Below, piece after piece: positions 235 through 63,989 of a stretch of DNA of 64,000 nucleotides (position 1 is the stretch's first letter; each line of letters starts with the position of its first letter). The notes under the pieces are model-generated. The model was given only the letters and a program-made list of their open reading frames with translations, was not told where the DNA came from and did not search any database. Position numbers and translations under genes: made by a program. Source of the stretch: a virus; the IMG/VR virus record IMGVR_UViG_3300042878_002532, positions 32,001 to 96,000 of that record; one strand, given 5' to 3'.

Positions 235-1290
235 ATGATTAAAAAGTTTAATCAATACATAAAGGAGGACGTTGCAGGAGAAAAACAACTTCTGTATTAT
301 GCGTTTGACTGGGATGACAATATATTGAGCATGCCAACGGTTATACACATGGACCATCTTATCGATGGTGACTGGGTTCCTGAGGATGTTTCTACCGCAG
401 ACTTTGCAAAAGTAAGAGGTGATAGTGAGAACTGGAGAGTAATCAACGGTGATCCTGCTGCAGCTTTTTCTGAATTTAGAGATAGTGGACCAAGAGGTGA
501 TGTTGCTTTCTTGGAAGATACTAAAAATGCAGTCTCTGCACAAAGATTTTCTCCAGCGTGGGAAGATTTCGTAGAGTGTTTAGTAAACGGATCTCTTTTC
601 GCTATAATAACGGCGAGAGGACATGAAGCACCATCAATGAAAAAAGGAGTTGAGTGGATAATAGACAATGTTCTTTCTGAAGAACAACTATACGAAATGT
701 ATAACAACCTATTGAAGTTTGCTTATTTATTCAGACATAACAAAGAGTATGATAGAATATTAAAAGGGCAACCATCTGCACATTCACTTGTTCAACTTTA
801 TTTAGAAAATTGTGAGTTCGTGGGTGTTTCTGCACCATCAAGAGGTGGTTCACCATCTGATCCAGAACAAGCTAAAGAAGATGCACTTCTTCTTTTCATG
901 GATAGAGTAAACAAATTTGCGGCAAGTGTTGGATATAAAGCCAAAGTTGGATTCTCAGATGATGACTTAGGTAATGTTAGTCATATAGAAAACCTTGCAG
1001 ACAACTTACACCACGAGCAGTTTCCAAACTTATTATTATTTGTGGTTAAAGGTACAAAATATCCTGAAGACATTACTAAGAAAGTAGTTACTTTTGACGA
1101 GTTCAGAGGTGAAATGAAAGAAAGTCAAGATCCTATGACGACAAGCACTATGTCTATGCAAACTCCTAACGCTGCTATGTCGGCTGGTTTAAATAGTAAA
1201 GACCCTTTTGTGACTAGAGCCATTGGTCAGTCAAAACTTTTAACAAAAATGTCTAAAAACACTTTTGGAAAAAGTAAAAAAAAAGATTAG
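235..1290 (+). CDS. HAD-superfamily phosphatase-like protein with N-terminal tag
   Basis: Motif I FDWDDN, motif II ITARGH, acidic motif IV GFSDDDLGN; starts MIKKFNQYIKE. Confidence 0.6.
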   Translation: MIKKFNQYIKEDVAGEKQLLYYAFDWDDNILSMPTVIHMDHLIDGDWVPEDVSTADFAKVRGDSENWRVINGDPAAAFSEFRDSGPRGDVAFLEDTKNAVSAQRFSPAWEDFVECLVNGSLFAIITARGHEAPSMKKGVEWIIDNVLSEEQLYEMYNNLLKFAYLFRHNKEYDRILKGQPSAHSLVQLYLENCEFVGVSAPSRGGSPSDPEQAKEDALLLFMDRVNKFAASVGYKAKVGFSDDDLGNVSHIENLADNLHHEQFPNLLLFVVKGTKYPEDITKKVVTFDEFRGEMKESQDPMTTSTMSMQTPNAAMSAGLNSKDPFVTRAIGQSKLLTKMSKNTFGKSKKKD

Positions 1291-1320
1291 CCCGAAAGAA
1301 AAAGATTCAGGCAACAAATG

Positions 1321-1349
1321 ATCCGCTTAGTTTTTAAGCGGATTTTTTT
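1321..1349 (+). terminator. Intrinsic terminator
   Basis: ATCCGCTTA-gtttt-TAAGCGGAT followed by T-run. Confidence 0.75.
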
Positions 1350-1357
1350 AATATATA
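1349..1357 (+). promoter_or_regulatory. Putative late promoter TAATATATA
   Basis: Motif recurs shortly upstream of many starts; here 4 nt before ATG 1362. Confidence 0.6.
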
Positions 1358-1361
1358 GAAT

Positions 1362-3212
1362 ATGAAACTAAACAGATACTTAGACTTTATATCAGAAGGT
1401 ACCGGTAGTGGTAAAATGATGATATTCTACTCGGATGACCTGAGAGAGCTTTTCACACACATAGCGATGAGCGAGAGTTCCGCAAAAAATGTGGCAAGAG
1501 TACTTTTGGAAGTTGAAGACAACGACACCGTGAAAGACACTTATACTTTGATAGACAAAACCGACAAGAACGACATGATTTCGTATGTTCAGACAAGTAG
1601 GTTCTACAGAGAGTATCCTAACGGAATCTCGAGTCCGGATTTGGAAAAAGAAAGAGGTTACTCCATGAAGAGTAGCAAGTTCTGGAAAAGTGGAAGAACT
1701 CCTAACTACGGAATAGGAAGATGGGTAAGACACATATTCAACGACGTTCGTCAGACTCCTATAAAGAACGAAGATCTTGAGAGTTTTGTGAACGCCTACA
1801 AGTCTACCTACGATACAATGGCCAAACGTTCTGAAAAATTTAAATTGGTAAAAGGTGAGGATATAAGATACTGGTATTTAGAAGACAGATACGAAGAAGT
1901 GAGTGGACAGCTTGGAAACTCTTGTATGAGATACAAAAGATGTCAGTCATATCTGGATATCTATGTCGAGAATCCGGAATCGTGTAGTCTGCTTATATTG
2001 AAAGGTAATGATCCAGACAAGATAGCAGGACGTGCACTTATCTGGACTATACACGAAGGTCCAGGTGTTGCTGGAAGAAGGTTCATGGACAGGATCTACA
2101 CGATAAAGGACAGCGACAAGATTCTTTTTGAGGCATACGCGAAAGAGAACGATATTCTTAGATCACAATCTTATACGTACAAAATAAAGGTTAAGGAAGG
2201 TAGGTACGACTACTATCCTTATATGGACACGCTTACGTGCTATGATTATGAAAAAGGGATTCTATCTTCTTCTCTTGATGGCGAAGATATTTTAGGTCTA
2301 CAAAACACGGATGGAACCGCATCGGACAACGAAGGAAGAGTTTGGAGTGAGTATCACGGTGAGTATATAGACGAGGATGACGCCAGATATTGTGAAGACG
2401 TTGACGGTCCCGTGCACTATGAGAGCACGGTTTGGTTAGAATATTTAGACATATATGTTACCGATAATGCAGATACGGTTTATAGCGAATATTTTGATGG
2501 AAGCTACTATAGTGAAGATGCCGTTCGTTCGGAATGTATGGATGACTATCTAAAAGCAAACGATAGTGATGTTATAGAGATTAAAACTAGTGCGGATGGA
2601 GACACCGATTATTGTGTTTTAGATCGTAAGGACCTATATATTGAGGTAGATGACGAATATTACTATAGAAAGAATTATATATTAGATCCTTACACAGGTG
2701 AATATCATTTCGGTGATGAGAAGGTTGATGGTGTGAAATATATCAAATATTTAGAGAATAAGTTAGAAGAAGAACTTGAAGTAAAAGAGAAATATACTCT
2801 AGCAGGTGGAAAGTTTGATTTAGAAAAATATAGAACCGATCTTAAAAAGATGTTTGTCGAATATGTTCCTACCGATGACTTCATAAAAGAAGTGAAGACA
2901 AAGGGTGGTGATAATAGTTATTACTATCATTTACCTGGACTATATGCTTGGATAATAAGAGACCAGATGAATTATGGAACCATAAATGCAGGTTATCAAT
3001 CAAGTGCAGCATTGTCTAGCTACAAGAAACTTTTATTTGATATTTTGGAAGAGATGTCTGAAGAATTTGATAAAGAAAATATTAAATTATGGTACGATGA
3101 TAAGTTTTCACGCTCTTGGAATCTAAGATCCGTATTTAAAATATTTGACAATATAGACATCACTAAATTTCCTACGGAAATATACAAAAGAATATTCTTT
3201 TTTAACATATGA
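1362..3212 (+). CDS. Conserved phage protein (NSCMRY/GRALIW/MDRIY/YPYMDT family) with aromatic-acidic repeats
   Basis: 616 aa ORF; motif set typical of an uncharacterised phage family; N-terminal tag MKLNRYLDFISE. Confidence 0.55.
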   Translation: MKLNRYLDFISEGTGSGKMMIFYSDDLRELFTHIAMSESSAKNVARVLLEVEDNDTVKDTYTLIDKTDKNDMISYVQTSRFYREYPNGISSPDLEKERGYSMKSSKFWKSGRTPNYGIGRWVRHIFNDVRQTPIKNEDLESFVNAYKSTYDTMAKRSEKFKLVKGEDIRYWYLEDRYEEVSGQLGNSCMRYKRCQSYLDIYVENPESCSLLILKGNDPDKIAGRALIWTIHEGPGVAGRRFMDRIYTIKDSDKILFEAYAKENDILRSQSYTYKIKVKEGRYDYYPYMDTLTCYDYEKGILSSSLDGEDILGLQNTDGTASDNEGRVWSEYHGEYIDEDDARYCEDVDGPVHYESTVWLEYLDIYVTDNADTVYSEYFDGSYYSEDAVRSECMDDYLKANDSDVIEIKTSADGDTDYCVLDRKDLYIEVDDEYYYRKNYILDPYTGEYHFGDEKVDGVKYIKYLENKLEEELEVKEKYTLAGGKFDLEKYRTDLKKMFVEYVPTDDFIKEVKTKGGDNSYYYHLPGLYAWIIRDQMNYGTINAGYQSSAALSSYKKLLFDILEEMSEEFDKENIKLWYDDKFSRSWNLRSVFKIFDNIDITKFPTEIYKRIFFFNI

Positions 3213-3772
3213 AAAACGTAAAGACATATGAAGGATTCCTAGACTTCTTCAAAAGAAAACCAAAAAGTACAGAACCAGTTTATATGGATGATATAAAAGA
3301 GTGTGGGTACGACTTTTTACATGACAACAGAATAGCCACTTACGTCGATGGATCAACTCCAGGTGGTATTGGTCATGACTTTGATGATATTTTTGGAATA
3401 AAAAGAGGAATAGATTTGACACACGACTATGAAGATTTAATGAACGATACTATGAATCTACCACGTAACGTAAGAGGAAACATGATGATTATACAATTTC
3501 GATATTCTTTATACGAAGAAACTACAAGTAGAGAAAATTATAAATACGTTTCGAGAAATGAAATGTCTGAGATGTTGAAAGACTTCGCAGATAAGTTAGA
3601 GACATTGGATTGTAAGGCGAGTTTTTATCTTGCTTGGGGTTATGACGAAGGACGTACAGATGACAAAGAATACAAAAACATTGATAAAGTTATAGACGTT
3701 ATATACAAAACTGATAGAACTCCATTGGTAACGATGAAAATAACTGCACCTTCTGATATAATAGTCGATTAA
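3209..3772 (+). CDS. Hypothetical protein with N-terminal tag
   Basis: ATGA overlap with upstream gene; starts MKNVKTYEGFLDFF. Confidence 0.75.
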   Translation: MKNVKTYEGFLDFFKRKPKSTEPVYMDDIKECGYDFLHDNRIATYVDGSTPGGIGHDFDDIFGIKRGIDLTHDYEDLMNDTMNLPRNVRGNMMIIQFRYSLYEETTSRENYKYVSRNEMSEMLKDFADKLETLDCKASFYLAWGYDEGRTDDKEYKNIDKVIDVIYKTDRTPLVTMKITAPSDIIVD

Positions 3773-3778
3773 TTTCCT

Positions 3779-3786: not shown

Positions 3787-3790
3787 TTAA

Positions 3791-6303: not shown

Positions 6304-6891
6304 TTAAAACTTTCTTTTGAATGTTCTGTTTTTGTAGCTTTTAGACTCTCCAATCTGGTCGATATCTACTGCTTGAGCTTTAAGAGCTTGAGCTTCTGGA
6401 TCTAAACCTGTTTCAGTTTTATCAGAACCTCTTTCAAACTCACCTTGAGCTTGTGCTCTTTTTTGAGCTTGTGCTTGTACTCTTCTTTCTTTTTTACCTT
6501 GAGCTTCTGCTTGAGCTTGTGGGTTGTTAAGGTAATCAACAACTTTTTCAACGTCGTCAGTTTTCAAATCGATTCCGTCTACTCTAAATTGTCCTGTTTC
6601 AGATGGTTGATCAATCTCATGTCCATCATGATTGATAACATTTCTTTCAACTGAAGCACCTAACAATTCTGCTAATCCTTCTAATCCACCTTCTACTGCG
6701 TCTACGTCTCCATATGCTAATGGATTGTCTCTTACACCTGGTTCTTCTGTAGGAATAACAGATGGTCTAGCCGGTCTTGGCGTTGTATCTGGTCTTGTTG
6801 GTGCTGGAATCGTCTCAGGAGAAACGCCTGGTCTTGACGGTGCCGGAGCATTTTCATTTGTTTTTACAAATTGATTATATTTTTTAATCAT
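6304..6891 (-). CDS. Pro-rich, QA-rich hypothetical protein with N-terminal tag
   Basis: MIKKYNQFVKTNE; PAPSRP/PAPTRP repeats; TAATATATA on minus strand at 6914-6922. Confidence 0.75.
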   Translation of the reverse strand: MIKKYNQFVKTNENAPAPSRPGVSPETIPAPTRPDTTPRPARPSVIPTEEPGVRDNPLAYGDVDAVEGGLEGLAELLGASVERNVINHDGHEIDQPSETGQFRVDGIDLKTDDVEKVVDYLNNPQAQAEAQGKKERRVQAQAQKRAQAQGEFERGSDKTETGLDPEAQALKAQAVDIDQIGESKSYKNRTFKRKF

Positions 6892-8070: not shown

Positions 8071-8802
8071 ATGGAAAAAGATTTAAGCTTAGGACCAGTC
8101 CTTACAAGCAAATATGGTGAAACGAATTCAATCGCTTGGTTGAATCAAATGATAATAAAATACATAACAAGTATTTATGGTCCTTTTGGATATTCTTATA
8201 GAGCAGGAAACAAAGACATCAATGTAAACGGAAAGCTGATAAACACAGAGTACATCGACAAAATGGTGAACAACTACACAGTTTTCAAAGGAATAATAAA
8301 CGATCAGGAAATAAACACAGAGGAAGGATTCTACAACTATATGGTTGCAAACTTATTCGATGTGTATAACTACGGTGGTTCTCATTTTGATAAGATAACC
8401 TTACCGGTTCTTATTGCAACCTCTAGACGAGGGAACATTGGTGAACAAAAGGCTTTAGCGTTTTTTAAAAACGAACTTATGAAAAGAAACGTTGAGTGTG
8501 TTATAATACCACCAACTCTTTTAGAAGATGGTCAAGGAATAGATGGTAAGTTTATGTGGAATGGTAAAGAACTTACTATTCAAGTAAAACCTTATGATAG
8601 TATAATGAAAAGAGATGGAATGGTAAATGTTTTTTCTCAAGGATCATTATCTCTTCAAATAATAGGTGCTGGTAAAAATGTAGACTATCTTGTTCTTTAC
8701 AATCTTGAAAAGAAAGGATTTGTAATAGTAAGAGCAAGTAATGTTACTATACAAGGAAATCAGTTTATATTTCCAGAAGACAAACTCATCGCAATGATAT
8801 AA
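8071..8802 (+). CDS. PD-(D/E)XK nuclease-like protein
   Basis: GNIGEQ...EDGQGIDG...TIQVKPY pattern typical of the restriction-endonuclease fold. Confidence 0.55.
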   Translation: MEKDLSLGPVLTSKYGETNSIAWLNQMIIKYITSIYGPFGYSYRAGNKDINVNGKLINTEYIDKMVNNYTVFKGIINDQEINTEEGFYNYMVANLFDVYNYGGSHFDKITLPVLIATSRRGNIGEQKALAFFKNELMKRNVECVIIPPTLLEDGQGIDGKFMWNGKELTIQVKPYDSIMKRDGMVNVFSQGSLSLQIIGAGKNVDYLVLYNLEKKGFVIVRASNVTIQGNQFIFPEDKLIAMI

Positions 8803-8803: not shown

Positions 8804-8835
8804 AAAAAACCCACTCATTTTGAGTGGGTTTTTTT
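8804..8835. terminator. Bidirectional terminator, CCACTC/GAGTGG family
   Basis: AAAAAACCCACTCA-ttt-TGAGTGGGTTTTTT. Confidence 0.85.
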
Positions 8836-10258
8836 ATTTTCCAAAGCCGCCGAATATATCCATTACAACAGATAATCTTTCAGTTATCTCAGGCATTCCC
8901 AATGGTTCGATAATCTTGTTTATCGGTGCCAAAATACATTTCGCAAACTGAATGTCATAATCAATCGCTGGTGCAATCTCAATCGGATAAGAACCTCTAA
9001 TATAAGCAAAGATATCTCCATTGTTATTGTTTTTACAATAGTAGTATTTAATCTTAGTTCCAGACTTTACAAATTCGTACTTAGTCTGTAAATACTTGTT
9101 CTGATGTAAAAGATAGTTATGATAAGCACTTGCTTTTACTGCGAAGTGAGCACCATTTACGAACTGAAGTGGTAAAGATTTATCATCTATTACTTTGACA
9201 TCGTAGTTTGAACAAGAAGACTGCATAGCAATGTCGTCAATATCAGCCAACTCAAACTCTTTACGTAGAGCTTTGATTAGTTTAAGTAAATCCTTTATGT
9301 TGAATGTGTTCGAATGTTCAAAAAGATACTTCACAATGTTGATAATCTTCTCTCTAGCGAACAATGGAGTCGAAGATCTTACTAACTCTACTCCTTTAGG
9401 GAATAAGTATGTCAATCTATCATAAGGAATTCCATCTTCAAAAGAAACATGTTGAATATATTTCTTCTTAGCCAATGAGATAATAGATTCAGAAATTCTT
9501 TCAAGCTCGAAATCTTCTTTGTTTTCTACTCCAAATGTTGCTGCGTAGTCTTCTAAACATTGTTTAAAGTATCCACCATATCTAAAATGGTCCATTCCGT
9601 GAATGTAATCTACTTCTCTCGACCAGTTCCATTCTACTTCACAAGTAAGTGCTCCACTTCCAATAAGTTTCATGAATCCTCTGTCCTTAATGAAAAGTCC
9701 GTCAGAGATTATCATCTCATAGTCTGTTGTAAGAAGTTCTTCAAATTCTGCAAGATTCGCAGCAGTTCCTAAATGATTAGGGTTGTCTGTTTTTATGTTG
9801 TTCTGTGAAAGAACTATAAATTTCTTATCAATCGATTTTAGATTTTCAGTACCTAAAAGAATATCTCTCCAATCAGAGTGGTTTATTGCAGGAAGAAAAG
9901 AAACGAATAGTGAATCGGTATCTGCATAGATTGAAACCGGTTCACTTCTATCTATTGCAGTTACGTTTCTAACACAAAGTCTTTTGTGTAACTCAAAGTC
10001 AAAGTGCCATTGGTTGTACCAATAGTCTTCGTTGACTCTATCCATAGTTTGTGTAAGGTCTCTTCCTTGAGCGGTGATTGTTCCTGCAACGTGGTTGTTG
10101 TACAATATGAAGTATGCTGTTGCGAAGGCTCCATAAGATCCATTCAGAACTAATTTTAGAGCGGTTTGCATCGCATTGTAGTATTCGACGGTCTTCTTAA
10201 CCTCGATTGCTTGCCTTTTCAGTTCTTCTATCTTTTTAAGCTTTTCTTCCTTTGTCAT
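8834..10258 (-). CDS. Family B DNA polymerase, C-terminal half (split gp43B-like)
   Basis: Motif B KLVLNGSYG, TITAQGR, motif C YADTDS, KKKY, KGVELVRSSTP; no exonuclease domain or motif A. Confidence 0.9.
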   Translation of the reverse strand: MTKEEKLKKIEELKRQAIEVKKTVEYYNAMQTALKLVLNGSYGAFATAYFILYNNHVAGTITAQGRDLTQTMDRVNEDYWYNQWHFDFELHKRLCVRNVTAIDRSEPVSIYADTDSLFVSFLPAINHSDWRDILLGTENLKSIDKKFIVLSQNNIKTDNPNHLGTAANLAEFEELLTTDYEMIISDGLFIKDRGFMKLIGSGALTCEVEWNWSREVDYIHGMDHFRYGGYFKQCLEDYAATFGVENKEDFELERISESIISLAKKKYIQHVSFEDGIPYDRLTYLFPKGVELVRSSTPLFAREKIINIVKYLFEHSNTFNIKDLLKLIKALRKEFELADIDDIAMQSSCSNYDVKVIDDKSLPLQFVNGAHFAVKASAYHNYLLHQNKYLQTKYEFVKSGTKIKYYYCKNNNNGDIFAYIRGSYPIEIAPAIDYDIQFAKCILAPINKIIEPLGMPEITERLSVVMDIFGGFGK

Positions 10259-10259
10259 A

Positions 10260-10640
10260 TCATTTTATTATTTTTGTCGTGTCTATTGCTATTACTTTTG
10301 TTTCCTTTATTTCTATAATATCTACCTTTGTCTTTGTTGTGTCTTTTATCGGTCTTCTGAATACCTTCTTAGGTATTATCTCTACAATAGGTACTATCTT
10401 TCTACTTTCTTCTAATATCTTTGATATTGAGTCTACTTTGTGTACAAGCTCTATGTTTTCGGATTTCAACATTTGTTTTTCATCAGATATTTGACTTATA
10501 TCAGATTTTAGACTTACTATCCAAAAAATTAGAACGATTGTTATAAATACCAGTGTTACTATCGAAGATGCACCGTTTGTTGTTTTGTCTCTACTTCCGT
10601 AGTTTCTTCTTCTGTTGTCGTATTTGTATCTATTATTCAT
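10260..10640 (-). CDS. Single-TM coiled-coil protein
   Basis: TM IVTLVFITIVLIFWIV followed by heptad region and DTT repeats. Confidence 0.7.
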   Translation of the reverse strand: MNNRYKYDNRRRNYGSRDKTTNGASSIVTLVFITIVLIFWIVSLKSDISQISDEKQMLKSENIELVHKVDSISKILEESRKIVPIVEIIPKKVFRRPIKDTTKTKVDIIEIKETKVIAIDTTKIIK

Positions 10641-11421
10641 CTTCTTCTGAAAAATCTTGTTCGAATGAAAGCATTAGGTTTGAGTCTTCGTGTTTAACAA
10701 GCATAAAGTTGTCAAATATGTGAAACTGAATATCATCACTATCATTCACACATCCTAAGAACTTTTTGTTTAGTATTAAGTTAGAACTTCTGTCCGCGTC
10801 GATATTGTCTATCTCCAGCTCCCATGCTGCAGTTTCTGATATCACTACCTTTCCTGCGTTTACTCCAATCTGAAGTATTTTTTCTCCGTTTATAGAAGAA
10901 AGTTTTTTGATATCAGAGAAATCGTTTTTCGCAATCGTAAAAGACCATCTACTGTTTTTCAGGTGAAGACCTTGTTCTAATTTTTGTTTGTTCATGTCTT
11001 TTATCTCGTAGTGTTCACCACCGATCCAGTTCACTTTAAGTTTACCACCAACAATCTGCAATGCTCTTGCATCCATTATACTATCATCTTCCTGAGACTC
11101 TTTGTGAGTTATCTCTATAGTCACCTTATCACTTTCCTTTAGAAAGTTTAGATTCTTCACGAACTTCTTCGCGTTTAGAATGATGATATCTATACCATAT
11201 TCCAAGTCATCTTTCATCTCGAAGAGCTCACTTGTAGGTATATTGTAGTTTTTAAATGCAAGTACGGTAGCCTTACCTAAGATAGAGTACATCATCGTGT
11301 TTCCACTTTCTATCTTAATCTTTATGTTGTCGGATATCTTAGTCAGGTCTTCTAACTTAGATATAAACTCTGGAAGCTTTTCTGATTTTATTCTGAATTT
11401 GTCTTTTCCTGTTTTTGCCAT
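10633..11421 (-). CDS. Sliding clamp (gp45/PCNA-like)
   Basis: About 262 aa from MAKTGK, two-domain alpha/beta pattern, co-oriented upstream of the polymerase. Confidence 0.6.
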   Translation of the reverse strand: MAKTGKDKFRIKSEKLPEFISKLEDLTKISDNIKIKIESGNTMMYSILGKATVLAFKNYNIPTSELFEMKDDLEYGIDIIILNAKKFVKNLNFLKESDKVTIEITHKESQEDDSIMDARALQIVGGKLKVNWIGGEHYEIKDMNKQKLEQGLHLKNSRWSFTIAKNDFSDIKKLSSINGEKILQIGVNAGKVVISETAAWELEIDNIDADRSSNLILNKKFLGCVNDSDDIQFHIFDNFMLVKHEDSNLMLSFEQDFSEEDE

Positions 11422-11492: not shown

Positions 11493-12020
11493 ATGATAAA
11501 TAAATGGAATGAATTCATAAGAGAGTTTGTTGAATCAACTGGATTGATTGATGCAAAAATGCAAGAGCTCAAAGATTTGATAGATGGTATGTCCGATGGA
11601 CAGAACCTTATATACGAATGGGAGAACAAAGACGACCATCAGTTATTGGTTAATTTTACTAGCGGTGATCTTTCTCTTAGATATGAGTTTGACATTGATG
11701 ATTTACACGTTACAAAAATTGCTGGTGATACTGTAGACTATAAGACTGATGTTGAGTCTATGGAAGAAGGATTAGATCTTATTGAAAAGGATATTCAATC
11801 CATCTTAGGTATTGATGAAAAAAAGACAAATAATATGAAATATTTGAAAAAATTTGAGTCTTATAATTTTGAAGACTTTACACATTCCGATATGGAAGAT
11901 GTAAAAGATTTATTAGAAGAAGGGTTAACTGCCGAAGAAATCGCAAATGAATTAGACTTTGATGTAAACAAAGTTAAACAAATAATCTCTTCTATTAGAA
12001 AGAGTGAAAAATTTAATTAA
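11493..12020 (+). CDS. Hypothetical protein with two tags and C-terminal HTH-like segment
   Basis: Start MINKWNEFIRE after TAATATATA (11479-11487); internal MKYLKKFESY at 11835; GLTAEEIANELDFDVNKVKQII. Confidence 0.7.
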   Translation: MINKWNEFIREFVESTGLIDAKMQELKDLIDGMSDGQNLIYEWENKDDHQLLVNFTSGDLSLRYEFDIDDLHVTKIAGDTVDYKTDVESMEEGLDLIEKDIQSILGIDEKKTNNMKYLKKFESYNFEDFTHSDMEDVKDLLEEGLTAEEIANELDFDVNKVKQIISSIRKSEKFN

Positions 12021-50330: not shown

Positions 50331-53300
50331 TTAAGCTCTGGTGATTTCAACTTTGCTCGCGTCACTTCCGTTAATCATATTTACGATCGTGGAAATTCCC
50401 GCCACTTTGGCTATCTGCTTGTTTAGTTTTTCGACCTTCTCTTTGTCTTTACCTATTTCTTTTCCAAATTCTATCGCGTTGAAAAGAACGTTTTTGCCAT
50501 CCACCTCTTTTGTGATCCAATATGCTCCGATCACTTCTATTTTTTCGGTGGTGATTTTTTTCTGACCGTCCGCACTCATCATTCCGACTTCTATAGTACC
50601 TGGTGATAATAACAATTTCAAGAAATCATCTCTTTTAACTTTGGTGAAATGTGAAAGTGCTTTAGATTCTTTTACCTGTAAATCACCACCTACTAAATTA
50701 TTAGCATGTCCTAAAACAGAGGCGTCTAGAAGAGGATTGAATGTGCCAAAGTTTTTACTACACTGCATATATGCATATGCACCATCTATCTCTTGAATGT
50801 AGAATGCTCTCTGTGCCTCGTTGCCATCTTTGTCTTTTATCTTCAATACAAAAAACGTGTATTTTACAGGATAAACGGCTTTTTTACCATCGTCACTAAC
50901 CGCGTTTTCACTTTTTGTGGCCTTTATCTTAGTAGCGCTTGCTTCTATCCCTTCTACAATCTCTTGGTTATTTTCTTCATCTTTTTCCAAAAATGTTCCT
51001 CCTTTGTTGATTGCAGTACCTATCTTCTCGTCCGGTTTTCCAAAGTATTCGTCTAAAAGCTCTGCTTGTTTTCCTCTTCCTGAATCACCATATCCACTTT
51101 TAGATTTGTAAAGACTATCACCATCTAACATATCGGTCATGAACTTTCTCAGATTGGCACCACCGTTTGGTCTGATTTCGTTTCCTACTCTTAGGTTTGT
51201 CTTCGGGTCGAAGATGAATTCGTATTTTCTATCTTTCATTAAATCCAAAACTGCATTTTCCCAAACATCGAATATTTTGTCGTTTCTATAAGGACCTTTG
51301 TCTCCAAACGAAGTATATTCTGCTTCGGTACTTACACCAGGTCCGGTACTTCTTTTTGTTATGTATTTTGCCATATAAAGCTTGTATGCTCTGTTGAACA
51401 ATTTCAATATCTCGATTATTGGATCGTATCCGTCTATTATGAATCCGTCTTTGTCTTTTTCTAACTTTTCGAAGTTTGCTCTAACTTTCTCAAACTCTGT
51501 TTTATCCATTGTGTAGTCTTTTACATTTCTACACTTTCTCTCAAAGTAGTCTTGTATCCTTTCGACTCTAGACATACTAGATCTTGGATCACTTGCACTT
51601 GTACTTCCTTGAGTTTCTGTTGACTCTGGAGTCTCTTCTGTAGTCACTGGTTCTTCTGCTTCTTTTATGTAAGACATGAATCTGTCGAATTTAAGCAATC
51701 TTCCTACAGGTTTACTACTGCTCTTCAATGCTTCGTTTAATTCCAACATAATAACACGCATTCCAGCTTGTATCTCCATTAATTTTGAGATATAAACACT
51801 TTCGTTTACCGATTCGTCAAGCTTGTCCAGGTCGGCTTTCATTTTATCTATGTTTGCTAGTATCTTCGCTTTTTTTGGGTTATCTTTTTTAAGTTCCAAT
51901 GCTTTTTTAGTCGCACTTTCTATATCTTTTATAAGCTCGTCCTTTTTATATTTGGTCTCTCTTGCCTTTTGGTCTACATAAGGTGAAAGATCTGATTTTG
52001 AAACTCCAAAAGAAATTTTCGAATCGTCGTACACAACAGATAGTGTATCTTCCTTTGGAAGTTTTCCACCTTCTGCGTCGTCTTTAGTTGCCCACTTTTT
52101 ATCATCGCCCATTTTCATTACATGAGTCTTCGAAACCAAAGTCACAACTCTCTTATCGCCTTTTCCGTCTGTGTATATGTATTTTTGACCAACGTTGTAT
52201 TTGCTTTCCTTTTTCTTTTCCTCGCTTTGCTCTGAATACTCTGTCTTAACATTGACAATTGGATTTTTCATCAAAACCTTTAATGTCTCAACAAACTTTT
52301 TAAGCGGATCTGCCAATTCTCCTAAACCACCATAAAGATTCTTCCCATCAAACTGTAAAGCTCTCTTTGCGAATCTTGCGATTTTTTCCGCAACAACTTC
52401 AATCTTACCACCATTTGGATTTTTCTCACTTCTTGGCATTAGATATTCGTAAGACTCTTTATATAAAGAATCTTTTTCTTGAATCGTTTGCTTTTTGTCA
52501 CCTACCAAATACCTATTTATATTGTCGTATAAGGCCATTATGAGTGTATCGTTTTTACCATCTTTATGTTTGGCTAATAGTATTCTGACAAACTCTTCAC
52601 TTATTGGTAGCTTTTGGTCTTTTGTATCTATAAGAGATGTTATATCTTTTGTTAATTTTCCAAATGCTTGAGTCAAATGATCTTCTTCTTTATAGACATT
52701 ATTTCCATCTACACTATTTCCTTGTTTCTCTAATACTAATTCAAGTCCTGCTTTTAAAGTTATCTTTTCCTTTTTAGTGTTAAGTTTCGTAGCAGCAGCG
52801 AGTGTTGCTTTCAATTCTAGTTCGTTTTTGGCAAAAATTTTATCAATATTTGCACTTGAAAAAGTAACTCCTTTGTTTATATCGGAGTTGTTCAGTATCG
52901 ATGTTAATGTGTCACCTGCTACAGTTACATAAGGAACTGGTTTCTTTGCATCTGCCTCTTCTTTTTTGTTGAAGTTTAAAAGATTTACACTTTTGTAATT
53001 TTTTAAGATATAGTAAAGTGCACTTAGATTCTTAATCATGGTTGGAAGGCTTTCTTCTAACTTTGAATATTTATCCTCATTCTCTTCAGAATCTTCTTCA
53101 CTTTGACCCTGTCCTTGACCCTGTCCTTGACCTTGTGCTTGACCCTGTCCTTGACCTTGTGCTTGACCTTGTGCTTGACCTTGTGCTTGACCCTGTGCTT
53201 GACCCTGTGCTTCTATTTTTTTTAGTTCCTCTAAGAAACCCTCAAGTTCTTCAAGTAATTTAGCCTTTACTGTAGTATCAATATCGGTTTCTTTCATCTC

Positions 53301-53756
53301 TTCTGTTGCTGTGATTGCACTTTCTGTAAGATTTATTATAATATTAGTCTCAGAACCATTTTCAACGGCCTCGTTCAATGCAAAAAAGAATGAATACAAA
53401 ATACTTTTTGCATAAAGTTTCTTATCTTCAGGATTCATGTTGTATGCAAATCCAGATGCTGCTATCCTATCAAATTCACCTTCTAGTCTTGAGATTAATG
53501 GCTTTATTCTTCTAAGGTTGTTAGCGACTTTTGCTTTTCTAACAAGGTGATTTAAAAACCTACCTACTAATGAATCATGCCATCCAATATCATTCGCCAT
53601 TGGTCCTGATCCGTGGTTGCTGGCATATTCACTTTCTTTTATAAGTTCTTGATATAGTTCATTTCCTGATATTTTTGCGTCTCTTAGAAATTCAGATTTT
53701 TCGTCTAATCTTTTGGCTTCTCTTAAAAAGTCATTTCTTTTAATAAGATATTTCAT
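50331..53756 (-). CDS. Large protein with tag, QG repeat and LysM-like segment
   Basis: MKYLIKRNDFLRE; (QGQA)n; YVTVAGDTLTSI; internal LLKFDRFMSYIKE; TAATATATA at 53779-53787. Confidence 0.75.
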   Translation of the reverse strand: MKYLIKRNDFLREAKRLDEKSEFLRDAKISGNELYQELIKESEYASNHGSGPMANDIGWHDSLVGRFLNHLVRKAKVANNLRRIKPLISRLEGEFDRIAASGFAYNMNPEDKKLYAKSILYSFFFALNEAVENGSETNIIINLTESAITATEEMKETDIDTTVKAKLLEELEGFLEELKKIEAQGQAQGQAQGQAQGQAQGQGQGQAQGQGQGQGQGQSEEDSEENEDKYSKLEESLPTMIKNLSALYYILKNYKSVNLLNFNKKEEADAKKPVPYVTVAGDTLTSILNNSDINKGVTFSSANIDKIFAKNELELKATLAAATKLNTKKEKITLKAGLELVLEKQGNSVDGNNVYKEEDHLTQAFGKLTKDITSLIDTKDQKLPISEEFVRILLAKHKDGKNDTLIMALYDNINRYLVGDKKQTIQEKDSLYKESYEYLMPRSEKNPNGGKIEVVAEKIARFAKRALQFDGKNLYGGLGELADPLKKFVETLKVLMKNPIVNVKTEYSEQSEEKKKESKYNVGQKYIYTDGKGDKRVVTLVSKTHVMKMGDDKKWATKDDAEGGKLPKEDTLSVVYDDSKISFGVSKSDLSPYVDQKARETKYKKDELIKDIESATKKALELKKDNPKKAKILANIDKMKADLDKLDESVNESVYISKLMEIQAGMRVIMLELNEALKSSSKPVGRLLKFDRFMSYIKEAEEPVTTEETPESTETQGSTSASDPRSSMSRVERIQDYFERKCRNVKDYTMDKTEFEKVRANFEKLEKDKDGFIIDGYDPIIEILKLFNRAYKLYMAKYITKRSTGPGVSTEAEYTSFGDKGPYRNDKIFDVWENAVLDLMKDRKYEFIFDPKTNLRVGNEIRPNGGANLRKFMTDMLDGDSLYKSKSGYGDSGRGKQAELLDEYFGKPDEKIGTAINKGGTFLEKDEENNQEIVEGIEASATKIKATKSENAVSDDGKKAVYPVKYTFFVLKIKDKDGNEAQRAFYIQEIDGAYAYMQCSKNFGTFNPLLDASVLGHANNLVGGDLQVKESKALSHFTKVKRDDFLKLLLSPGTIEVGMMSADGQKKITTEKIEVIGAYWITKEVDGKNVLFNAIEFGKEIGKDKEKVEKLNKQIAKVAGISTIVNMINGSDASKVEITRA
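53102..53211 (-). repeat. 12-bp-period tandem repeat encoding (QGQA/QGQG)n
   Basis: TGACC(C/T)TGT(G/C)CT units on the plus strand. Confidence 0.9.
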
Positions 53757-57437: not shown

Positions 57438-59591
57438 ATGGCTGTAAAAGCAAACGAAACCGAAAGGCAGATGATTTTTACCACCAAATTTGTCGATGAG
57501 GCAACTGATAAGATAAACGACGGTATAGTCGTCAAAAGATATCAGAATCCTTGGATGAAGAGCGAAGTCGGTATCAGAAGAGCAGGCGTCTCTTTTAGAA
57601 TGACTCCCGAAGAACAACAAGAATACGTAAGATGTGCATTAGATATACATTACTTTACTGAGAAGTATTGTAAGACAAAAAGAGAAGATGGTTCTGTTGG
57701 TTCGATAACTCTTAGAGATTACCAAAAAGAAATCTTAGACAACTTTGTCAACAACAGATTCAATATACTTATGGCATCGAGACAGGTTGGTAAAACCGTG
57801 TCTTCTGCTATTTTCATACTACATACGATATTATTCAGTAATGATAAGAACTGTATGATTGTTGCCAACAAAGGTGATACTGCAATTGAGATTGTGGATA
57901 AAGTAAAATCGATATACACACTTCTTCCATTCTTCTTAAAACCAGGTGTAAAGACTTGGAATCAAAAATCTCTTACATTTGAGAATGGTTGTAGAATAAA
58001 AACATCTGCAAGATCTAAGACTCCTGCGATTGGTTTTACCATTGACGTTCTTTACTTAGATGAGTTTGCACATATTCCATCGAATATCATCGAACCATAC
58101 TATACCGCTGCGTTTCCGACCGTTTCTGCGGTACAAAACTCAAAGATTATCATTACATCAACACCAAATGGTATGAACTTATTTCATAGGTTATTAACAG
58201 ATGCTGAAAGACCTGATGGTGATCCAATGAAGAATAACTACAAACCTATGAGGGTTTACTGGTATCAGGTTCCTGGTAGGTTTGTGACTTATATAAGATT
58301 GAATCCACACAAACTTTATGAATATGGTGTTACAAAAGACGACATATTTAAATTAGTACAAGATACGTTTGGTGAAGTCACAAAGACAAAGATTGAGTTT
58401 AACTTAGACCAGCAGAAAGATGTTATTCATGTATTTAACAATGAAAAGTGTACAGATGAAGAAGTTAAATCACTTCATTTTATAGACAAAAATGGATTTG
58501 AGACTTCTATATTAGCCATTGCAGAGATGACAACGTGGAAAGACGAAGCTGTGAAGGATATTGGTGGAGAAGATGCGTTCAATCAAGAGTATGGACTTAG
58601 ATTTATTAACTCAAGTAAGTCTCTTTTGAATGAGGCCATAATAGATGAACTTTTAAAATCTAAAAAGAACTATATCTATGAAGAAATATTTGAGTTTAAG
58701 AACAAACTGAGGTTTATGTATGAAGACTTAAAATGGATTGATGATGATGAAGTACATATGCCATTAAAAAGAAAAGAATATAAATATGTTCTTTCTGTCG
58801 ATATATCCGAAGGTTTAGGACAAGATTACTCTATCATAAACATATTTAAAGTTTCTGAAAAACCTGTAGATTTAATAGAAACACAAAAACACAAATACAA
58901 GGCCATTACTGATTTCTTCAGACTTGAACAGGTTGGATTATACAGAAACAACTTTGTTTCTGTCAAACAATTAGCAGAACTTCTTTATCTTCTTGTTTTT
59001 GAATATTTGAATCCTGATAATGTAAGAGTAGTTCTTGAGTTAAACAACTATGGAAACACACTATTGGCGGAGATGCCGCACGTTTTTGATGGTAACAACA
59101 ACTATGGTTCATCGGTGTTTGTTAGGTATAAACATAGAATAGATTCGACTGAAGAAAAACTTGGACTAAAAGTTGGTGAGAATAAAAACATGATGGTTAA
59201 AGACTATCAAGAACTTATGTATAGTAGAGGATTTCATATTACAAATGAGGATAATATTAGAGAAATAACAACTTTTGTTAAGCATGTCACTACCGCAGGT
59301 AACGTAAGATATGCAGCAGACGTAGGACATGATGATACGGTTATGACCGTGGTCAATGCCACTTCTATTTTTGCCAAATCAGAATTCAAAGAGATGGTCG
59401 AAGAGTGGGGTAATAAATATAGTCCTAAAGAGTTTATGGCTTATGTCAACGACTGTATGAAAAACATGGATTATGTACAAGGAATTGACTATAGTCAGGT
59501 TCTTAGTGTTAGAAGACAGGTTATGTCACGAAATAAAGTGTCTAATGTAGGATCTAATCCGAATGGAATAAACTGGTTCAATAGACCTTAA
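57438..59591 (+). CDS. terL: Terminase large subunit (gp17-like)
   Basis: LRDYQ, SRQVGKT Walker A, YLDEFAH Walker B, ITSTPNG, nuclease VDISEGLGQDYS and HDDTVM. Confidence 0.95.
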   Translation: MAVKANETERQMIFTTKFVDEATDKINDGIVVKRYQNPWMKSEVGIRRAGVSFRMTPEEQQEYVRCALDIHYFTEKYCKTKREDGSVGSITLRDYQKEILDNFVNNRFNILMASRQVGKTVSSAIFILHTILFSNDKNCMIVANKGDTAIEIVDKVKSIYTLLPFFLKPGVKTWNQKSLTFENGCRIKTSARSKTPAIGFTIDVLYLDEFAHIPSNIIEPYYTAAFPTVSAVQNSKIIITSTPNGMNLFHRLLTDAERPDGDPMKNNYKPMRVYWYQVPGRFVTYIRLNPHKLYEYGVTKDDIFKLVQDTFGEVTKTKIEFNLDQQKDVIHVFNNEKCTDEEVKSLHFIDKNGFETSILAIAEMTTWKDEAVKDIGGEDAFNQEYGLRFINSSKSLLNEAIIDELLKSKKNYIYEEIFEFKNKLRFMYEDLKWIDDDEVHMPLKRKEYKYVLSVDISEGLGQDYSIINIFKVSEKPVDLIETQKHKYKAITDFFRLEQVGLYRNNFVSVKQLAELLYLLVFEYLNPDNVRVVLELNNYGNTLLAEMPHVFDGNNNYGSSVFVRYKHRIDSTEEKLGLKVGENKNMMVKDYQELMYSRGFHITNEDNIREITTFVKHVTTAGNVRYAADVGHDDTVMTVVNATSIFAKSEFKEMVEEWGNKYSPKEFMAYVNDCMKNMDYVQGIDYSQVLSVRRQVMSRNKVSNVGSNPNGINWFNRP

Positions 59592-61502: not shown

Positions 61503-62201
61503 ATGAAACATATCAGACAATTTGAAAGTTTTAGAGTTCAGAAAAACAGACAAGAAATAATCAGCGAAGCTGTTCTTCAAGTGAACGATATCTATAAGGT
61601 TAAAACTATGATCGATATTCCACAATCTTTAATCAATTCTTATGTTAAGAAAGTTAAAGATACTACAGGAAAAAATCTTCGTCAGTTTTTCGGTGATGTT
61701 GACATCGCGGAAGAGATTGTAAAATACATAACTCTTAACAATACAGACGTTGAGAAGATTCCTGGAAACGCTTTAATGGGCGGTGCACAAGGACAAGTTC
61801 AAGGACAGGGTCAAGGACAGGTTCAAGTTCAAACTGAAGGTGAGGCACAAACTCAAGGACAGGAACAAGCTCAACCACAAGCTCAACCACAGGGTCAAGG
61901 TCAAGAACAAGCTCAACCACAAGGACAGGGTCAAGAACAAGCTCAACCACAAGCACAATCACAAGAAGGTGATTTTGAAGAGCCACAAGCTCAACCACAA
62001 GGACAAGGACAGGAACAAGCTCAACCACAGGCACAAGGACAAGCTCAAACTGGTCAAGGACAAGCTCAAGGACAGGGTCAAGGACAAGCTCAAGGACAGG
62101 GTCAAGGACAAGGACAGGGACAACCACAAGGACAGGGTCAAGCTCAAGGACAAGGACAGGGTCAAGAAGAAGATGAAGATGAAGAAGAACTTCCAGCTTA
62201 A
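61503..62201 (+). CDS. Tagged protein with long Q/G/A/P low-complexity tail
   Basis: MKHIRQFESF; about 125 aa of QGQ/QAQP repeats; acidic end; TAATATATA at 61469-61477. Confidence 0.8.
   Translation: MKHIRQFESFRVQKNRQEIISEAVLQVNDIYKVKTMIDIPQSLINSYVKKVKDTTGKNLRQFFGDVDIAEEIVKYITLNNTDVEKIPGNALMGGAQGQVQGQGQGQVQVQTEGEAQTQGQEQAQPQAQPQGQGQEQAQPQGQGQEQAQPQAQSQEGDFEEPQAQPQGQGQEQAQPQAQGQAQTGQGQAQGQGQGQAQGQGQGQGQGQPQGQGQAQGQGQGQEEDEDEEELPA
61786..62166 (+). repeat. Low-complexity CAAGGACAGGGT/CAAGCTCAACCA repeats (poly QG/QAQP)
   Basis: Directly visible tandem degenerate repeats. Confidence 0.9.
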
Positions 62202-62272: not shown

Positions 62273-62920
62273 ATGAAAAAAATCATTACATGGGAAGAGT
62301 TTAATGAATCTTATAATAAACCAAGAGTAGGTGGTAAAAAGAGATGGTCTGTTAAATATAAAAAAACAATAGACTGTAATAATCCTAAAGGTTTTTCACA
62401 AAAACAATATTGTAAGAGAAAAAGAAAAGGTGGTAATTATAAGTCTGTTAAAGAAAACTTTGGTCTATCTGACCAAGAAATAGAAAATAAGATAATGGAA
62501 GTATGGAAAGTAGATCCATATGAGTTTAAAGACTACATTACTTCATCTATGGATCATGGTGACTTATATGGAAGTTGTAATTTGACTTTTGTTCTTTGGT
62601 ATCCTTATCCAGATTCTAATGTCGAACCATGTGCCATATTTATGTTAGAAGATAACGAATGGAAGAAAGGACCTTGGTATGACAATATGGATGCTATATT
62701 GAAAAGTGAAAGATATGAAGTTGGTATAGAAGCTTGGGTTCCGGATGTTGGTGGTAATCATGAAAAGATAGAGAAGTTTTACAACTACGCAAACAGAGTT
62801 CTACAGGAAGCGGATATACCATACATTGCATCTTATCCAGATGTTCGACACGAAGGAAAGATACTTTTAGAGTATGGCTATACCTGGGGTTATAAAACAA
62901 AATTCATTGGCGACGAATAA
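62273..62920 (+). CDS. Tagged protein with WSxKYKxxIDCNNPKGFSQ domain
   Basis: MKKIITWEEFNE; conserved small basic phage domain; TAATATATA at 62260-62268. Confidence 0.7.
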   Translation: MKKIITWEEFNESYNKPRVGGKKRWSVKYKKTIDCNNPKGFSQKQYCKRKRKGGNYKSVKENFGLSDQEIENKIMEVWKVDPYEFKDYITSSMDHGDLYGSCNLTFVLWYPYPDSNVEPCAIFMLEDNEWKKGPWYDNMDAILKSERYEVGIEAWVPDVGGNHEKIEKFYNYANRVLQEADIPYIASYPDVRHEGKILLEYGYTWGYKTKFIGDE

Positions 62921-62948
62921 ATCTAAATGAGAAAATAATATATAGTAA

Positions 62949-63599
62949 ATGAGATACCTAAAAACGTTCGAAAGCCACAGCAGTAAAGACATTCTTATTG
63001 TTGTTGATGTTCAAAAATCATTCAAAAAATTCTTCAATGAGATTTATCTTCATGAGTTGAAAAAGTATTGTAATGAGTTCAGTAAGGTATATCAAATCTG
63101 GGACAACCACGTAGATGGAAAGAACGTCGATAAAGACTATCTATATGATGAAGATCCTGAAATACCTGTTCATAAAGATCTTTATCACTTTCCTAACCAA
63201 ACTGACTTGATTGAGAAAAGATACAACTATGACGTTGATGCAGACTTCTATAAAAAAGTTCTTACACCGGAAACCTATGAAGAAGTTAAGACTAAAGAAG
63301 ATGCAAACGAATTGAAAAAGGGAGATTTCTTTCCTACAGAAGAAGGAACTCTTATTATATATGTCGGAAATAACCACAAATGGTATCATATGCCAAAGAA
63401 ACTTCACGAACTTTTTACAGAAGTTGCAGAGGCACAAAATATGAATGAAGGATTGAGTGAGGTTAAAGATGTGATTCTTGTAGGTGGTGCAGATGGAGAA
63501 TGTCTTACAGATGTTGAAACTGCAGCAGAGGCAATGGGTGTAAAACTGAGACTTAATCACAAATATATCTATAGTGCTAGCCACTGTCCAATAAAATAA
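62949..63599 (+). CDS. Isochorismatase/nicotinamidase-like cysteine hydrolase with tag
   Basis: ILIVVDVQ, WDNH, EKRY, LVGGADGECL; starts MRYLKTFESH; TAATATATA at 62936-62944. Confidence 0.6.
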   Translation: MRYLKTFESHSSKDILIVVDVQKSFKKFFNEIYLHELKKYCNEFSKVYQIWDNHVDGKNVDKDYLYDEDPEIPVHKDLYHFPNQTDLIEKRYNYDVDADFYKKVLTPETYEEVKTKEDANELKKGDFFPTEEGTLIIYVGNNHKWYHMPKKLHELFTEVAEAQNMNEGLSEVKDVILVGGADGECLTDVETAAEAMGVKLRLNHKYIYSASHCPIK

Positions 63600-63608
63600 G
63601 ATTTATAT

Positions 63609-63989
63609 ATGAGACTTATATTAGAGTTTGATAAATATAGTGTTATTGAAGATGTTGTTGCTGAGATGTCTAAGATATTTCCTCATGTGAAAATGAAAGG
63701 AAGTGTTCTATATGCTTCTTCTATTTTAGACAAAGGTGGAAATCCTCTTGTGAGAATAGACTCAAAACAACCATTGATGGCACTTTTGATTCAATTTATT
63801 GGTGATCATATTGTTATAAAATCATTTGTAAACTCTGTAAGAGAACCTAACTTCTCAAAAAGATTTATGGATGGTCTTTCAAATGTTTTAGAACCAAAAT
63901 ATACCATAGTAGTTGATCAAGATGTGAGTCAAGGATATTGGGACCATATAATCGAAAAGTATCCTCAATTTAATTGGATTAAAAAATAG
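63609..63989 (+). CDS. Hypothetical protein with tag (possible GNAT-like fold)
   Basis: MRLILEFDKY; C-terminal DQDVSQGYWDHI. Confidence 0.65.
   Translation: MRLILEFDKYSVIEDVVAEMSKIFPHVKMKGSVLYASSILDKGGNPLVRIDSKQPLMALLIQFIGDHIVIKSFVNSVREPNFSKRFMDGLSNVLEPKYTIVVDQDVSQGYWDHIIEKYPQFNWIKK

Follow-up and report, generated by a model that had tools for sequence, protein, structure and literature searches.

Why should some twenty proteins with little else in common begin with the same short peptide? The question is raised by a 64,000-nucleotide stretch of viral DNA from IMG/VR record IMGVR_UViG_3300042878_002532, hereafter the window, for which a sequence-only reading had listed 20 such N-termini, likened them to the capsid-targeting sequence of phage T4, and proposed that they load dozens of proteins into the virion. 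The T4 capsid-targeting sequence is textbook material. It is found on the internal proteins IPI, IPII, and IPIII, as well as on Alt and the gp24 propeptide, and the prohead protease gp21 cuts it off (Mullaney and Black, 1996; PMC3012670; PMC9958956; PMC12373910). The ip loci of T-even phages are hypervariable, and their products, alike in the leader only, are inhibitors of host defences (PMC3012670; PMC12373910). From the comparisons described below, the tag set of the window is probably a greatly expanded variant of this T4 system, and the phage probably injects dozens of ready-made enzymes along with its DNA. The capsid-targeting reading is supported in most of its predictions that sequences can address, and the figure of dozens is if anything too low, as about 100 genes carry the tag in a complete relative.

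The window comprises bases 32001-96000 of a 113,293-bp virus contig (33.6% G+C) with an estimated completeness of 17% (CheckV). The contig is syntenic with 98-200 kb of LR745206, a circular genome of 634,780 bp deposited as 'uncultured phage', in which 88 of its 126 open reading frames (ORFs) have a homologue; the fused protease-scaffold protein described below is 83% identical between the two. LR745206 and its kin (635-735 kb) are the largest phage genomes reported by Al-Shayeb et al. (2020), form the 'Mahaphage' clade, and have Bacteroidetes as predicted hosts (PMC7162821). Near-identical DNA is present in more than 20 lake-water metagenome studies. The contig represents some 17% of the genome of a megaphage from lake water, which belongs to the Bacteroidota-infecting 'Mahaphage' clade.

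The tag is an amphipathic, aromatic N-terminus of 10-14 residues found on about one gene in five. All 20 N-termini listed earlier are present at their coordinates and on their strands, and six more bring the contig to 26. Two classes are distinguished, both of them in the window. Class A has the consensus M-I-K-K-[FYW]-x-x-[FY]-[ILV]-x-E (in LR745206 M-I-K-K-[YFW]-x-x-F-[IL]-x-E, about 40 tags), and class B has M-K-[YH]-[LI]-K-x-[FY]-[EN]-x-[FY] (in LR745206 M-K-[YH]-[LI]-K-x-[FY]-[EN]-[ES]-[F], about 68 tags). Class B accounts for roughly 60% of LR745206 tags and for about half of the window's. Tags were scored with a position-specific scoring matrix (PSSM) of 11 columns, built from the listed N-termini aligned on the first aromatic residue and applied at a threshold of 8 bits. 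The strict form of the tag core is the 7-mer [FYW]xx[FYW][LIVM]xE. The tagged genes are as follows, in window coordinates unless stated otherwise; TAATATATA is an upstream motif discussed further on.

235-1290 (+): class A, MIKKFNQYIKE; HAD phosphatase nearest the 3'-phosphatase domain of T4 Pnkp by VIA-align structure comparison
1362-3212 (+): class A, MKLNRYLDFISE; 616 residues, TAATATATA 12 nt upstream
3209-3772 (+): class B-like, MKNVKTYEGF; 187 residues, start overlapping the stop of the preceding gene, weak member (leave-one-out score 2.1)
6304-6891 (-): class A, MIKKYNQFVKTNE; 195 residues
6941-7429 (-): MRHLMRYEGY; 162 residues, body DUF6576 (Pfam, 2.2e-9), LR745206 ortholog also tagged
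11493-12020 (+): class A, MINKWNEFIRE; second, in-frame tag MKYLKKFESY at 11835 (residue 115), an addition to the listed tags
12030-12239 (+): MKNLLLFEDY; 69 residues, N-terminal half of DUF5872 (Pfam profile positions 1-46)
12239-12532 (+): MEYLLLFEQFILE; 97 residues, C-terminal half of DUF5872 (Pfam profile positions 48-109), strict core FEQFILE
16467-17195 (-): MKHLNNFESFSINE; 242 residues, tag end resembling the end of the capsid-protein propeptide (..FHSINE)
17809-18168 (-): MEIKKFKLFKE; 119 residues, start 12 nt past the stop of the polyphosphate kinase 2 (PPK2) gene
18180-19340 (-): MKNLRKFLDFIKE; PPK2 (Pfam, 1.1e-75, residues 147-372), promoter 28 nt upstream
27659-27919 (-): class A, MIKRFEDFIKE; 86 residues, top PSSM score, ortholog 70% identical with tag kept
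40704-41687 (+): MAKIDKVEKFLKE; 327 residues
42000-42383 (+): class B, MKHLKKFNEGFF; 127 residues
49771-50313 (-): class B, MKYLKNFKRFE; 180 residues
50331-53756 (-): MKYLIKRNDFLRE; 1141 residues, internal tag-like site at residues 690-699
61503-62201 (+): class B, MKHIRQFESF; 232 residues, ortholog 70% identical with tag kept
62273-62920 (+): MKKIITWEEFNE; 215 residues, TAATATATA 12 nt upstream
62949-63599 (+): class B, MRYLKTFESH; 216 residues, ortholog 62% identical with tag kept
63609-63989 (+): MRLILEFDKYSVIE; 126 residues, weak member (leave-one-out score 3.2)
356 (-), 2397 (-), 8658 (-), 9629 (-), and 30648 (-): additional tags in contig coordinates, outside the window

The concentration of the tag at gene starts is evident by several measures. 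A crude pattern, [FYW]xx[FYWH] at residues 5-8, occurs at 27 of 126 gene starts on the contig vs. 6.7% of internal methionines (p 6e-8). With the PSSM, 24 of the 126 starts reach 8 bits, compared with about 5 of 1967 non-start ATGs in six frames. In the complete LR745206, which took no part in building the matrix, 104-105 of 936 gene starts pass, compared with 7 of 2970 internal methionines. An unseeded, position-by-position test on 905 ORF starts of LR745206 confirms that the motif exceeds chance (p 1e-9 to 1e-53); it recovers K2, Y/H3, L4, K5, F/Y7, F10, and E11, that is, M-K-[YH]-L-K-x-[FY]-x-x-F-E. The same matrix tags none of the 105 gene starts of the Bacteroides phage crAss001 (34.8% G+C), and only 4 of 233 in T4 (35.1% G+C), namely ipII, ipIII, gene 61.1, and one spurious ORF; these two controls rule out base composition and host translation as the source of the enrichment. 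At tag columns with the same residue, codons are shared in 56.7% of pairs vs. 50.7% expected. Tag codons thus agree no more than codon usage predicts, indicating that selection acts on the peptide.

As had been claimed, the bodies behind the tags are unrelated: BLASTP among the 26 tagged proteins yields a single weak pair (E 8e-4). The reported absence of the tag from DNA polymerase, the primase-like protein, gp47, the large terminase subunit (TerL), and the sheath also stands, and on the contig the N-termini of portal, protease, and capsid protein likewise carry no tag. Tagged genes are distributed across the whole 635 kb of LR745206, where they cluster, 47 of 111 having a tagged neighbour vs. 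24.6 ± 5.7 in shuffles.

The two classes of tag are found on the same protein. Among 120 homologues of the phosphatase at 235-1290 (55-96% identity), 108 are tagged, mostly with class A (MIKKFNQFISES and similar), while about 12 of the 120 bear class B (MKYLKKFNEN and similar) and two are untagged. A variable linker of 3-6 residues separates a tag of either class from the conserved fold. Judged by these homologues, the two classes are functionally exchangeable. In an AlphaFold2 model of the phosphatase (mean predicted local distance difference test score, pLDDT, 77), residues 1-14 form a flexible, detached segment scoring below 60, and the fold starts at residue 18. The gene at 8071-8802 and its ortholog at 129820-130575 of LR745206 differ solely in the tag, and the tag is kept in 11 of 12 LR745206 orthologs of tagged genes. 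By these comparisons an orthologous body can acquire a tag, lose it, or exchange it for another. Half of the tagged genes (12 of 24) have a homologue in LR745206 vs. 75% of the untagged (76 of 102), and on this count tagged genes are hypervariable, like the T-even ip loci. The triplet [LIV]xE ends by residue 16 in 16 of the 26 contig tags vs. 15 of 102 untagged starts (p 4e-6), and in LR745206 an extended cut motif lies within the first 12 residues of 18 of 41 class A tags. In the phosphatase homologues FNE↓N/S of class B (the arrow marks the cut) aligns with F[IL]xE↓N/S of class A, and it is a guess from this alignment that the class B cut site is F-[NE]-E↓[NS].

The contig also encodes head machinery to which the tag can be compared. 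Three genes are relevant, all outside the window.

L003 9969-11681 (+): T4-type portal (Portal_T4, Pfam, 1.8e-57)
L003 14672-16774, that is, contig 110172-112274 (+): head protease fused to a repeat scaffold, 700 residues
L003 16860-17792 (+): start of the capsid protein, of which the first 311 residues lie on the contig; weak N-terminal match to gp23

The fusion protein begins with a gp21-like Ser/His protease (residues 1-280; phrog_207, 1.6e-29) that aligns with T4 gp21 across the catalytic His and Ser motifs (BLASTP E 7e-4; hhalign 89.6%, E 1.9e-6). A phmmer search of PDB sequences with the protease gives no match, and the family profile lists T4 gp21 (5jbl) at E 0.077. The protease passes the Pfam cut-off for S80 (25.1 bits, cut-off 23.4), and relatives 53% identical to it pass the cut-offs of both S77 and S80; by such profile scores it is intermediate between MEROPS families S77 and S80. 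C-terminal to the protease lie eleven 14-residue repeats, NIAYSEY[LIV]AENLDK, each with a strict core Y[STG]EY[LIV]AE (11 vs. about 0.15 expected). Across the contig proteome the strict 7-mer occurs 28 times: 11 in the scaffold, 7 at tagged N-termini (positions 5-8, with the start at 12239 counted), and 10 scattered vs. about 8 expected by composition. Read in this way, the scaffold is a polymer of the tag core motif. The stronger idea that the tag is a whole scaffold repeat was dropped, since only the 7-residue core is common to both and the full matrix fails on the repeats. Scaffolds of 120 close relatives hold 7-12 repeats, with protease domains 88-100% identical and protein lengths of 595-731 residues; the array thus expands and contracts within the population. 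The repeats are also conserved in LR756501, which has 13, and in LR756504, which has 11. The capsid propeptide ends in a close variant of the core with one extra residue before I-N-E, EYAEFHSINE↓N (EYAEMHQMNE↓N in LR756501, EYAEYHQIHE↓N in LR756504), to which the tag MKHLNNFESFSINE at 17195 is comparable.

T4 offers the same correspondence. The sequence-only reading took MKTYQEFIAE as the T4 reference tag, which holds for ipII and ipIII and fails for ipI, which starts MKTFKEFTST; on the PSSM ipII and ipIII rank 5-6 and ipI ranks 19 of 2968 T4 ATGs. Strict cores occur at residues 4-10 of ipII and ipIII (YQEFIAE), in gene 61.1 (FKEFIKE), and at residues 59-65 of gp23 (FGSFLTE), with a relaxed hydrophobic form at residues 4-10 of gp24 (INELLRE). 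In T4 maturation gp23 loses 65 residues and gp24 loses 10, and the internal proteins are trimmed N-terminally (PMC9958956). Core ends coincide with published cleavage points at E10 of ipII and ipIII, E65 of gp23, and, for the relaxed form, E10 of gp24. The presence of the core in the scaffold, at the capsid propeptide, and at T4 cut points suggests that each class A tag is an N-terminal copy of an extended motif for recognition and cleavage by a gp21-type protease. Within T4 the matrix gives its top score (17.2 bits) to gene 61.1 (L004, AF158101, 18966-19130, minus strand), annotated as a hypothetical protein of 54 residues and starting MKTFKEFIKE, which from its sequence may be an unrecognised capsid-targeted protein. 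Gene 57B, adjoining ipI, starts MMEFKDF (7.3 bits).

Cores close to the other end of proteins were also seen. Four untagged proteins have a strict core within 25 residues of the C-terminus (window 44697-45638, minus; 19381-20283, minus; 43757-44380, plus; and contig 95999-96205, plus), for example FEAYIKE at residue 307 of 313. These could be chance, with about 8 expected overall, or a C-terminal variant of the signal.

Tagged genes tend to be preceded by a promoter-like element. The dominant upstream motif found by k-mer analysis in the contig and in LR745206 is TTAATATATA, which starts about 13 or 29 nt before the ATG; the shorter spacing would give nearly leaderless mRNAs. The earlier proposal that most tagged genes follow such a promoter, or lie in an operon behind one, is correct insofar as TAATATATA stands no more than 80 nt upstream of 11 of the 20 window genes, with the others located downstream on the same strand. 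The motif is not tag-specific, and its occurrence before 41 of 102 untagged genes as well, most of them structural, marks it as a shared late-type promoter. Within the window the reference for this promoter is the terminase gene:

57438-59591 (+): large terminase (TerL), untagged (phrog_5989, 2.4e-48); TAATATATA-type motif 30 nt upstream, likewise in LR745206

Across LR745206 the TAATATATA-type motif lies upstream of 53 of 100 tagged vs. 165 of 836 untagged genes (odds ratio 4.6, p 7e-12), or 55% of class A, 45% of class B, and 20% of untagged genes. It precedes the genes for sheath, TerL, portal, protease-scaffold, and large structural ORFs, and is not upstream of those for DNA polymerase, gp47, clamp loader, sigma factor, and the RNase II-like nuclease in that genome. 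The genes downstream of the motif argue for a late promoter. A second motif, TAnnTTTG, which we take to be the Bacteroidota housekeeping -7 element, is depleted before tagged genes of LR745206 (6% vs. 14%, p 0.027). This host-type motif stands before other genes, such as that for a nucleotidyltransferase.

A mechanism can be proposed on the T4 model. The phage would synthesize tagged proteins late, alongside those of the head, and the N-terminal tag helix would dock the cargo into the assembling prohead core. This core would consist of the protease-scaffold fusion, with the scaffold as a tandem array of the tag core motif. The gp21-type protease would then cut after the Glu of [LIV]-x-E, dismantling the scaffold, trimming the capsid protein, and freeing the cargo from its tag. 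Cargo would stay in the head and enter the next host with the DNA. Docking, cleavage, head retention, and injection are steps that we infer from T4.

Several observations weigh against assigning the tags to capsid targeting. None of 63 class B tags in LR745206 has the extended cut motif in its first 12 residues, and [LIV]xE downstream of class B is not significantly enriched there (54% vs. 42%). The scaffold repeats get no score from the full 11-column matrix. The protease falls below the Pfam cut-off for the T4 family model S77 (17.9 vs. 27 bits), and an AlphaFold2 model of its domain, built on a shallow alignment, reached only pLDDT 40. The promoter is common to many untagged genes, and within the contig, which is mostly late region, its association with tags is not significant (14 of 24 tagged vs. 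41 of 102 untagged genes, p 0.12). That tagged proteins reach the virion and lose the tag is a prediction, and a T4-like head with about 100 different packaged proteins per virion would have no precedent. Such a number is physically feasible. The T4 head contains about 1000 internal protein molecules (PMC3012670), and a report on SPN3US gives more than 40 MDa of ejection proteins (PMC7411985). By our own estimate a head for 635 kb could have room for about 100 protein species, each present in tens of copies. The one megaphage in culture, phage G, is not a relative (PMC12484599).

Other explanations of the tag have also been weighed. It is unlikely that the amphipathic helix directs late proteins to a destination besides the capsid interior, such as a chaperone or hub, another phage structure, a membrane, or the particle exterior, with the likeness to T4 limited to a helical pattern. 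Such a destination would fit class B tags without an adjacent protease site, scaffold repeats unmatched by the full matrix, a tagged share of 11-19% of genes that is very large for capsid cargo, and cargo families of which many are ordinary cytoplasmic enzymes. It does not readily accommodate the swapping of class A and class B on one orthologous body, the identity of the class A motif with the motif of scaffold, capsid propeptide, and T4 cleavage sites, or the virion-gene promoter common to both classes, and no gene for an alternative receptor or compartment was identified. Even less probable is a division in which class A alone is a capsid-targeting propeptide and class B (MK[YH]LKxFE..) is a separate signal lumped with it by the matrix. 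The classes do differ in register and in conserved residues, for example Y/H3, and in the extended cut motif (0 of 63 vs. 18 of 41 in the first 12 residues). Against their separation, about 12 of the 120 phosphatase homologues have class B where others have class A, at the same distance to the fold, with FNE↓N/S aligned to F[IL]xE↓N/S, and late-promoter enrichment is similar in both. The T4 ipI propeptide is 19 residues long, and ipI is packaged despite a first cut site 19 residues in.

Two further explanations rank lower still. That the tag is a leader for a single modifying enzyme, as in ribosomally synthesized and post-translationally modified peptides, with a radical-SAM/SPASM protein as the enzyme, is very improbable. 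One radical-SAM ORF (54 bits) does adjoin three tagged genes in LR745206; it is generic, however, with top NCBIfam scores far under the cut-offs. The 113-kb contig has 26 tags and no radical-SAM/SPASM domain, LR745206 has no SPASM domain, its tagged genes are scattered throughout the 635 kb, and the tag matches protease sites rather than a modification motif. Least credible of all is a nucleotide signal, in which the pattern would be a by-product of translation start on near-leaderless late mRNAs in an AT-rich Bacteroidota phage. The promoter often ends 3-4 nt before the ATG, the commonest spacing from motif to start is 12-13 nt, and K at positions 2-5 is enriched at ORF starts generally. Codons are nonetheless free under the conserved residues (56.7% vs. 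50.7%), and F, Y, and W interchange despite different second codon bases. Tags occur at both promoter spacings and inside operons, non-start ATGs give almost no matches, and crAss001, from the same host phylum and with similar G+C, has 0 of 105.

The capsid-targeting reading places the megaphage beside several known systems. The likeness to T4 lies in a 10-14-residue N-terminal tag that is the only common part of otherwise unrelated, hypervariable proteins, in the core aromatic-x-x-aromatic-[LI]-x-E, and in a gp20-type portal and gp21-like Ser/His protease encoded in the same genome, with the motif also at the cleavage site of the capsid protein. The differences begin with scale, as the 113-kb contig has at least 26 tagged genes and the complete relative about 100, vs. 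3 in T4 and about 10 across the T-evens (PMC12373910). The megaphage tag is one helical turn longer and has two interchangeable classes. Its cargo includes sizeable enzymes and proteins of up to 1141 residues, and is thus not confined to small inhibitors. Protease and scaffold, the latter made of tandem tag cores, are one fused protein, while T4 gp21 and gp22 are separate and gp22 lacks the motif; the predicted host of the megaphage also differs, being Bacteroidota. In phiKZ-like phages (phiKZ, 201phi2-1, and SPN3US, with the S80 protease gp175/gp245), a related prohead protease cleaves many proteins of the head interior after Glu, and a large protein mass is co-injected with the DNA (PMC5694885; PMC7411985; PMC10052503). 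Co-injection in the megaphage would be similar. The phiKZ-like propeptides mostly exceed 100 residues, lack a short tag in common, and are cleaved at [S/A/G]-x-E. Megaphage tags, in contrast, are short (10-14 residues) and shared, with L, I, or V at P3 (scaffold, capsid propeptide, and class A), and the bodies behind them are unrelated rather than paralogous inner-body proteins.

Fusion of protease and scaffold has its own precedents. The herpesvirus UL26/UL80 assemblin-scaffold precursor and gpO of phage P2 each carry a maturation protease followed by a scaffold in one polypeptide, which destroys itself after assembly. The megaphage fusion resembles these in domain order, and differs in having a scaffold of eleven 14-residue repeats, each with the cut-site motif that also heads the cargo. 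Encapsulins are not viruses, yet their shells have the HK97 fold, and their cargo-loading peptides are usually C-terminal, bind the shell protein directly, and are not removed. Encapsulin peptides and the megaphage tag would be alike as short, portable address labels for sending unrelated enzymes to the interior of an HK97-fold shell; the two have no sequence relation.

Most tagged bodies are orphans for which Pfam, PHROG, and NCBIfam searches return nothing. In VIA-align the AlphaFold2 model of the phosphatase at 235-1290 gives Z 9.1-9.4 to 4xrp, 5uj0, and 1ltq (T4 Pnkp and Pnkp1 3'-phosphatase domains), with dozens of other HAD enzymes ranking after them, and Foldseek of the same model against the PDB finds nothing at E <=0.001. 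The protein at 1362 is one of a family of paralogs, of which LR745206 has at least 8, the majority tagged, and the PPK2 at 18180-19340 has about 130 extra residues between tag and domain. On the contig outside the window, tags are found on a class III nucleotide (adenylate) cyclase (2e-21) and on a weakly matching Clp1-like P-loop protein. The Pfam families among 100 tagged LR745206 proteins include Sa_NUDIX, NUDIX, the PolyA_pol head (CCA-adding type), RNA_lig_T4_1, and 2H/Acb1-like, as well as NFACT-R, RNase_T (exonuclease), Zn_protease, methyltransferases, and an HTH domain. Going by family names only, the cargo looks like a first-strike kit for RNA repair and anti-defence.

Several tagged loci have unusual arrangements. 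The first part of the ORF at 11493-12020 corresponds in LR745206 to a separate gene of 109 residues, from which it follows that the ORF represents either two tagged genes fused or a lost stop codon. DUF5872 is split over two abutting ORFs (12030-12532, plus), each with its own tag, MKNLLLFEDY and MEYLLLFEQF; the LLLFE common to both suggests that the tag was duplicated when the gene was split. Internal tag-like sites with a cut motif are present in 50331-53756 (minus) at residues 690-699, ..FDRFMSYIKE↓AEEPVTTEETPE.., and in 40704-41687 (plus) at residues 72-86, ..IKKFEDFKISISIDE↓V.., and large tagged proteins with such sites may be cut into modules, like polyproteins.

The remaining gene content of the contig includes TerL, a sheath, a split family-B DNA polymerase, gp47/SbcD, and a gp55-like sigma factor with a weak match to T4 gp55 (E 8e-4). 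The polymerase seems to be split within window 8834-11421 (minus), where an ORF of 474 residues has matches to phage polymerase profiles in their C-terminal half only; in LR745206 the homologues of 8834-10258 and 10633-11421 are separated by about 7 kb, an interval holding the radical-SAM ORF, a NadR-like NMN adenylyltransferase, and three tagged genes. The tail sheath (45769-49701, minus) is unusually long at 1310 residues, with a strong match to the sheath profile only in its last ~370 residues, and its gene is 75-77% identical in DNA to LR745206 and LR756502. Three metatranscriptome runs yielded contigs over the sheath gene and over 50331-53756 in its 5' part; such contigs cannot show transcription, starts, or levels, and gaps in them are meaningless.

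Full-text literature searches returned no description of such a tag system for megaphages, and a 2026 review of jumbo phages mentions injected proteins for phiKZ-like phages only. The novelty relative to T4 lies in the number of tagged genes, in a pair of interchangeable tags, in enzymes as cargo, and in a scaffold composed of tag cores. In its fullest form the proposal is tentative, and we consider it somewhat less than an even prospect: the largest known phages would assign 10-20% of their genes to about 100 proteins that are loaded into the capsid and injected, including an RNA-repair set (kinase-like, Pnkp-like phosphatase, RNA ligase, and CCA-adding-type enzymes) together with Acb1-like, NUDIX, cyclase, and PPK2 proteins. 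Two interchangeable tags would imitate the repeat unit of a protease-fused scaffold, so that one protease both dismantles the scaffold and releases the cargo.

The T4 core has been called 'mysterious' in a review (PMC9958956), and the correspondence between tag and scaffold suggests that cargo is recruited by the scaffold core through an aromatic-x-x-aromatic-[LIV]-x-E unit. Such tags would also provide new short labels for loading foreign proteins into phage heads. Should they work like the tag of T4, the injected proteins of uncultured megaphages, most of whose genes are annotated as 'hypothetical', could be predicted by a simple sequence rule. The very large genomes and heads of these phages would then be explained in part as the means of delivering a ready-made enzyme kit to the host before phage gene expression begins.

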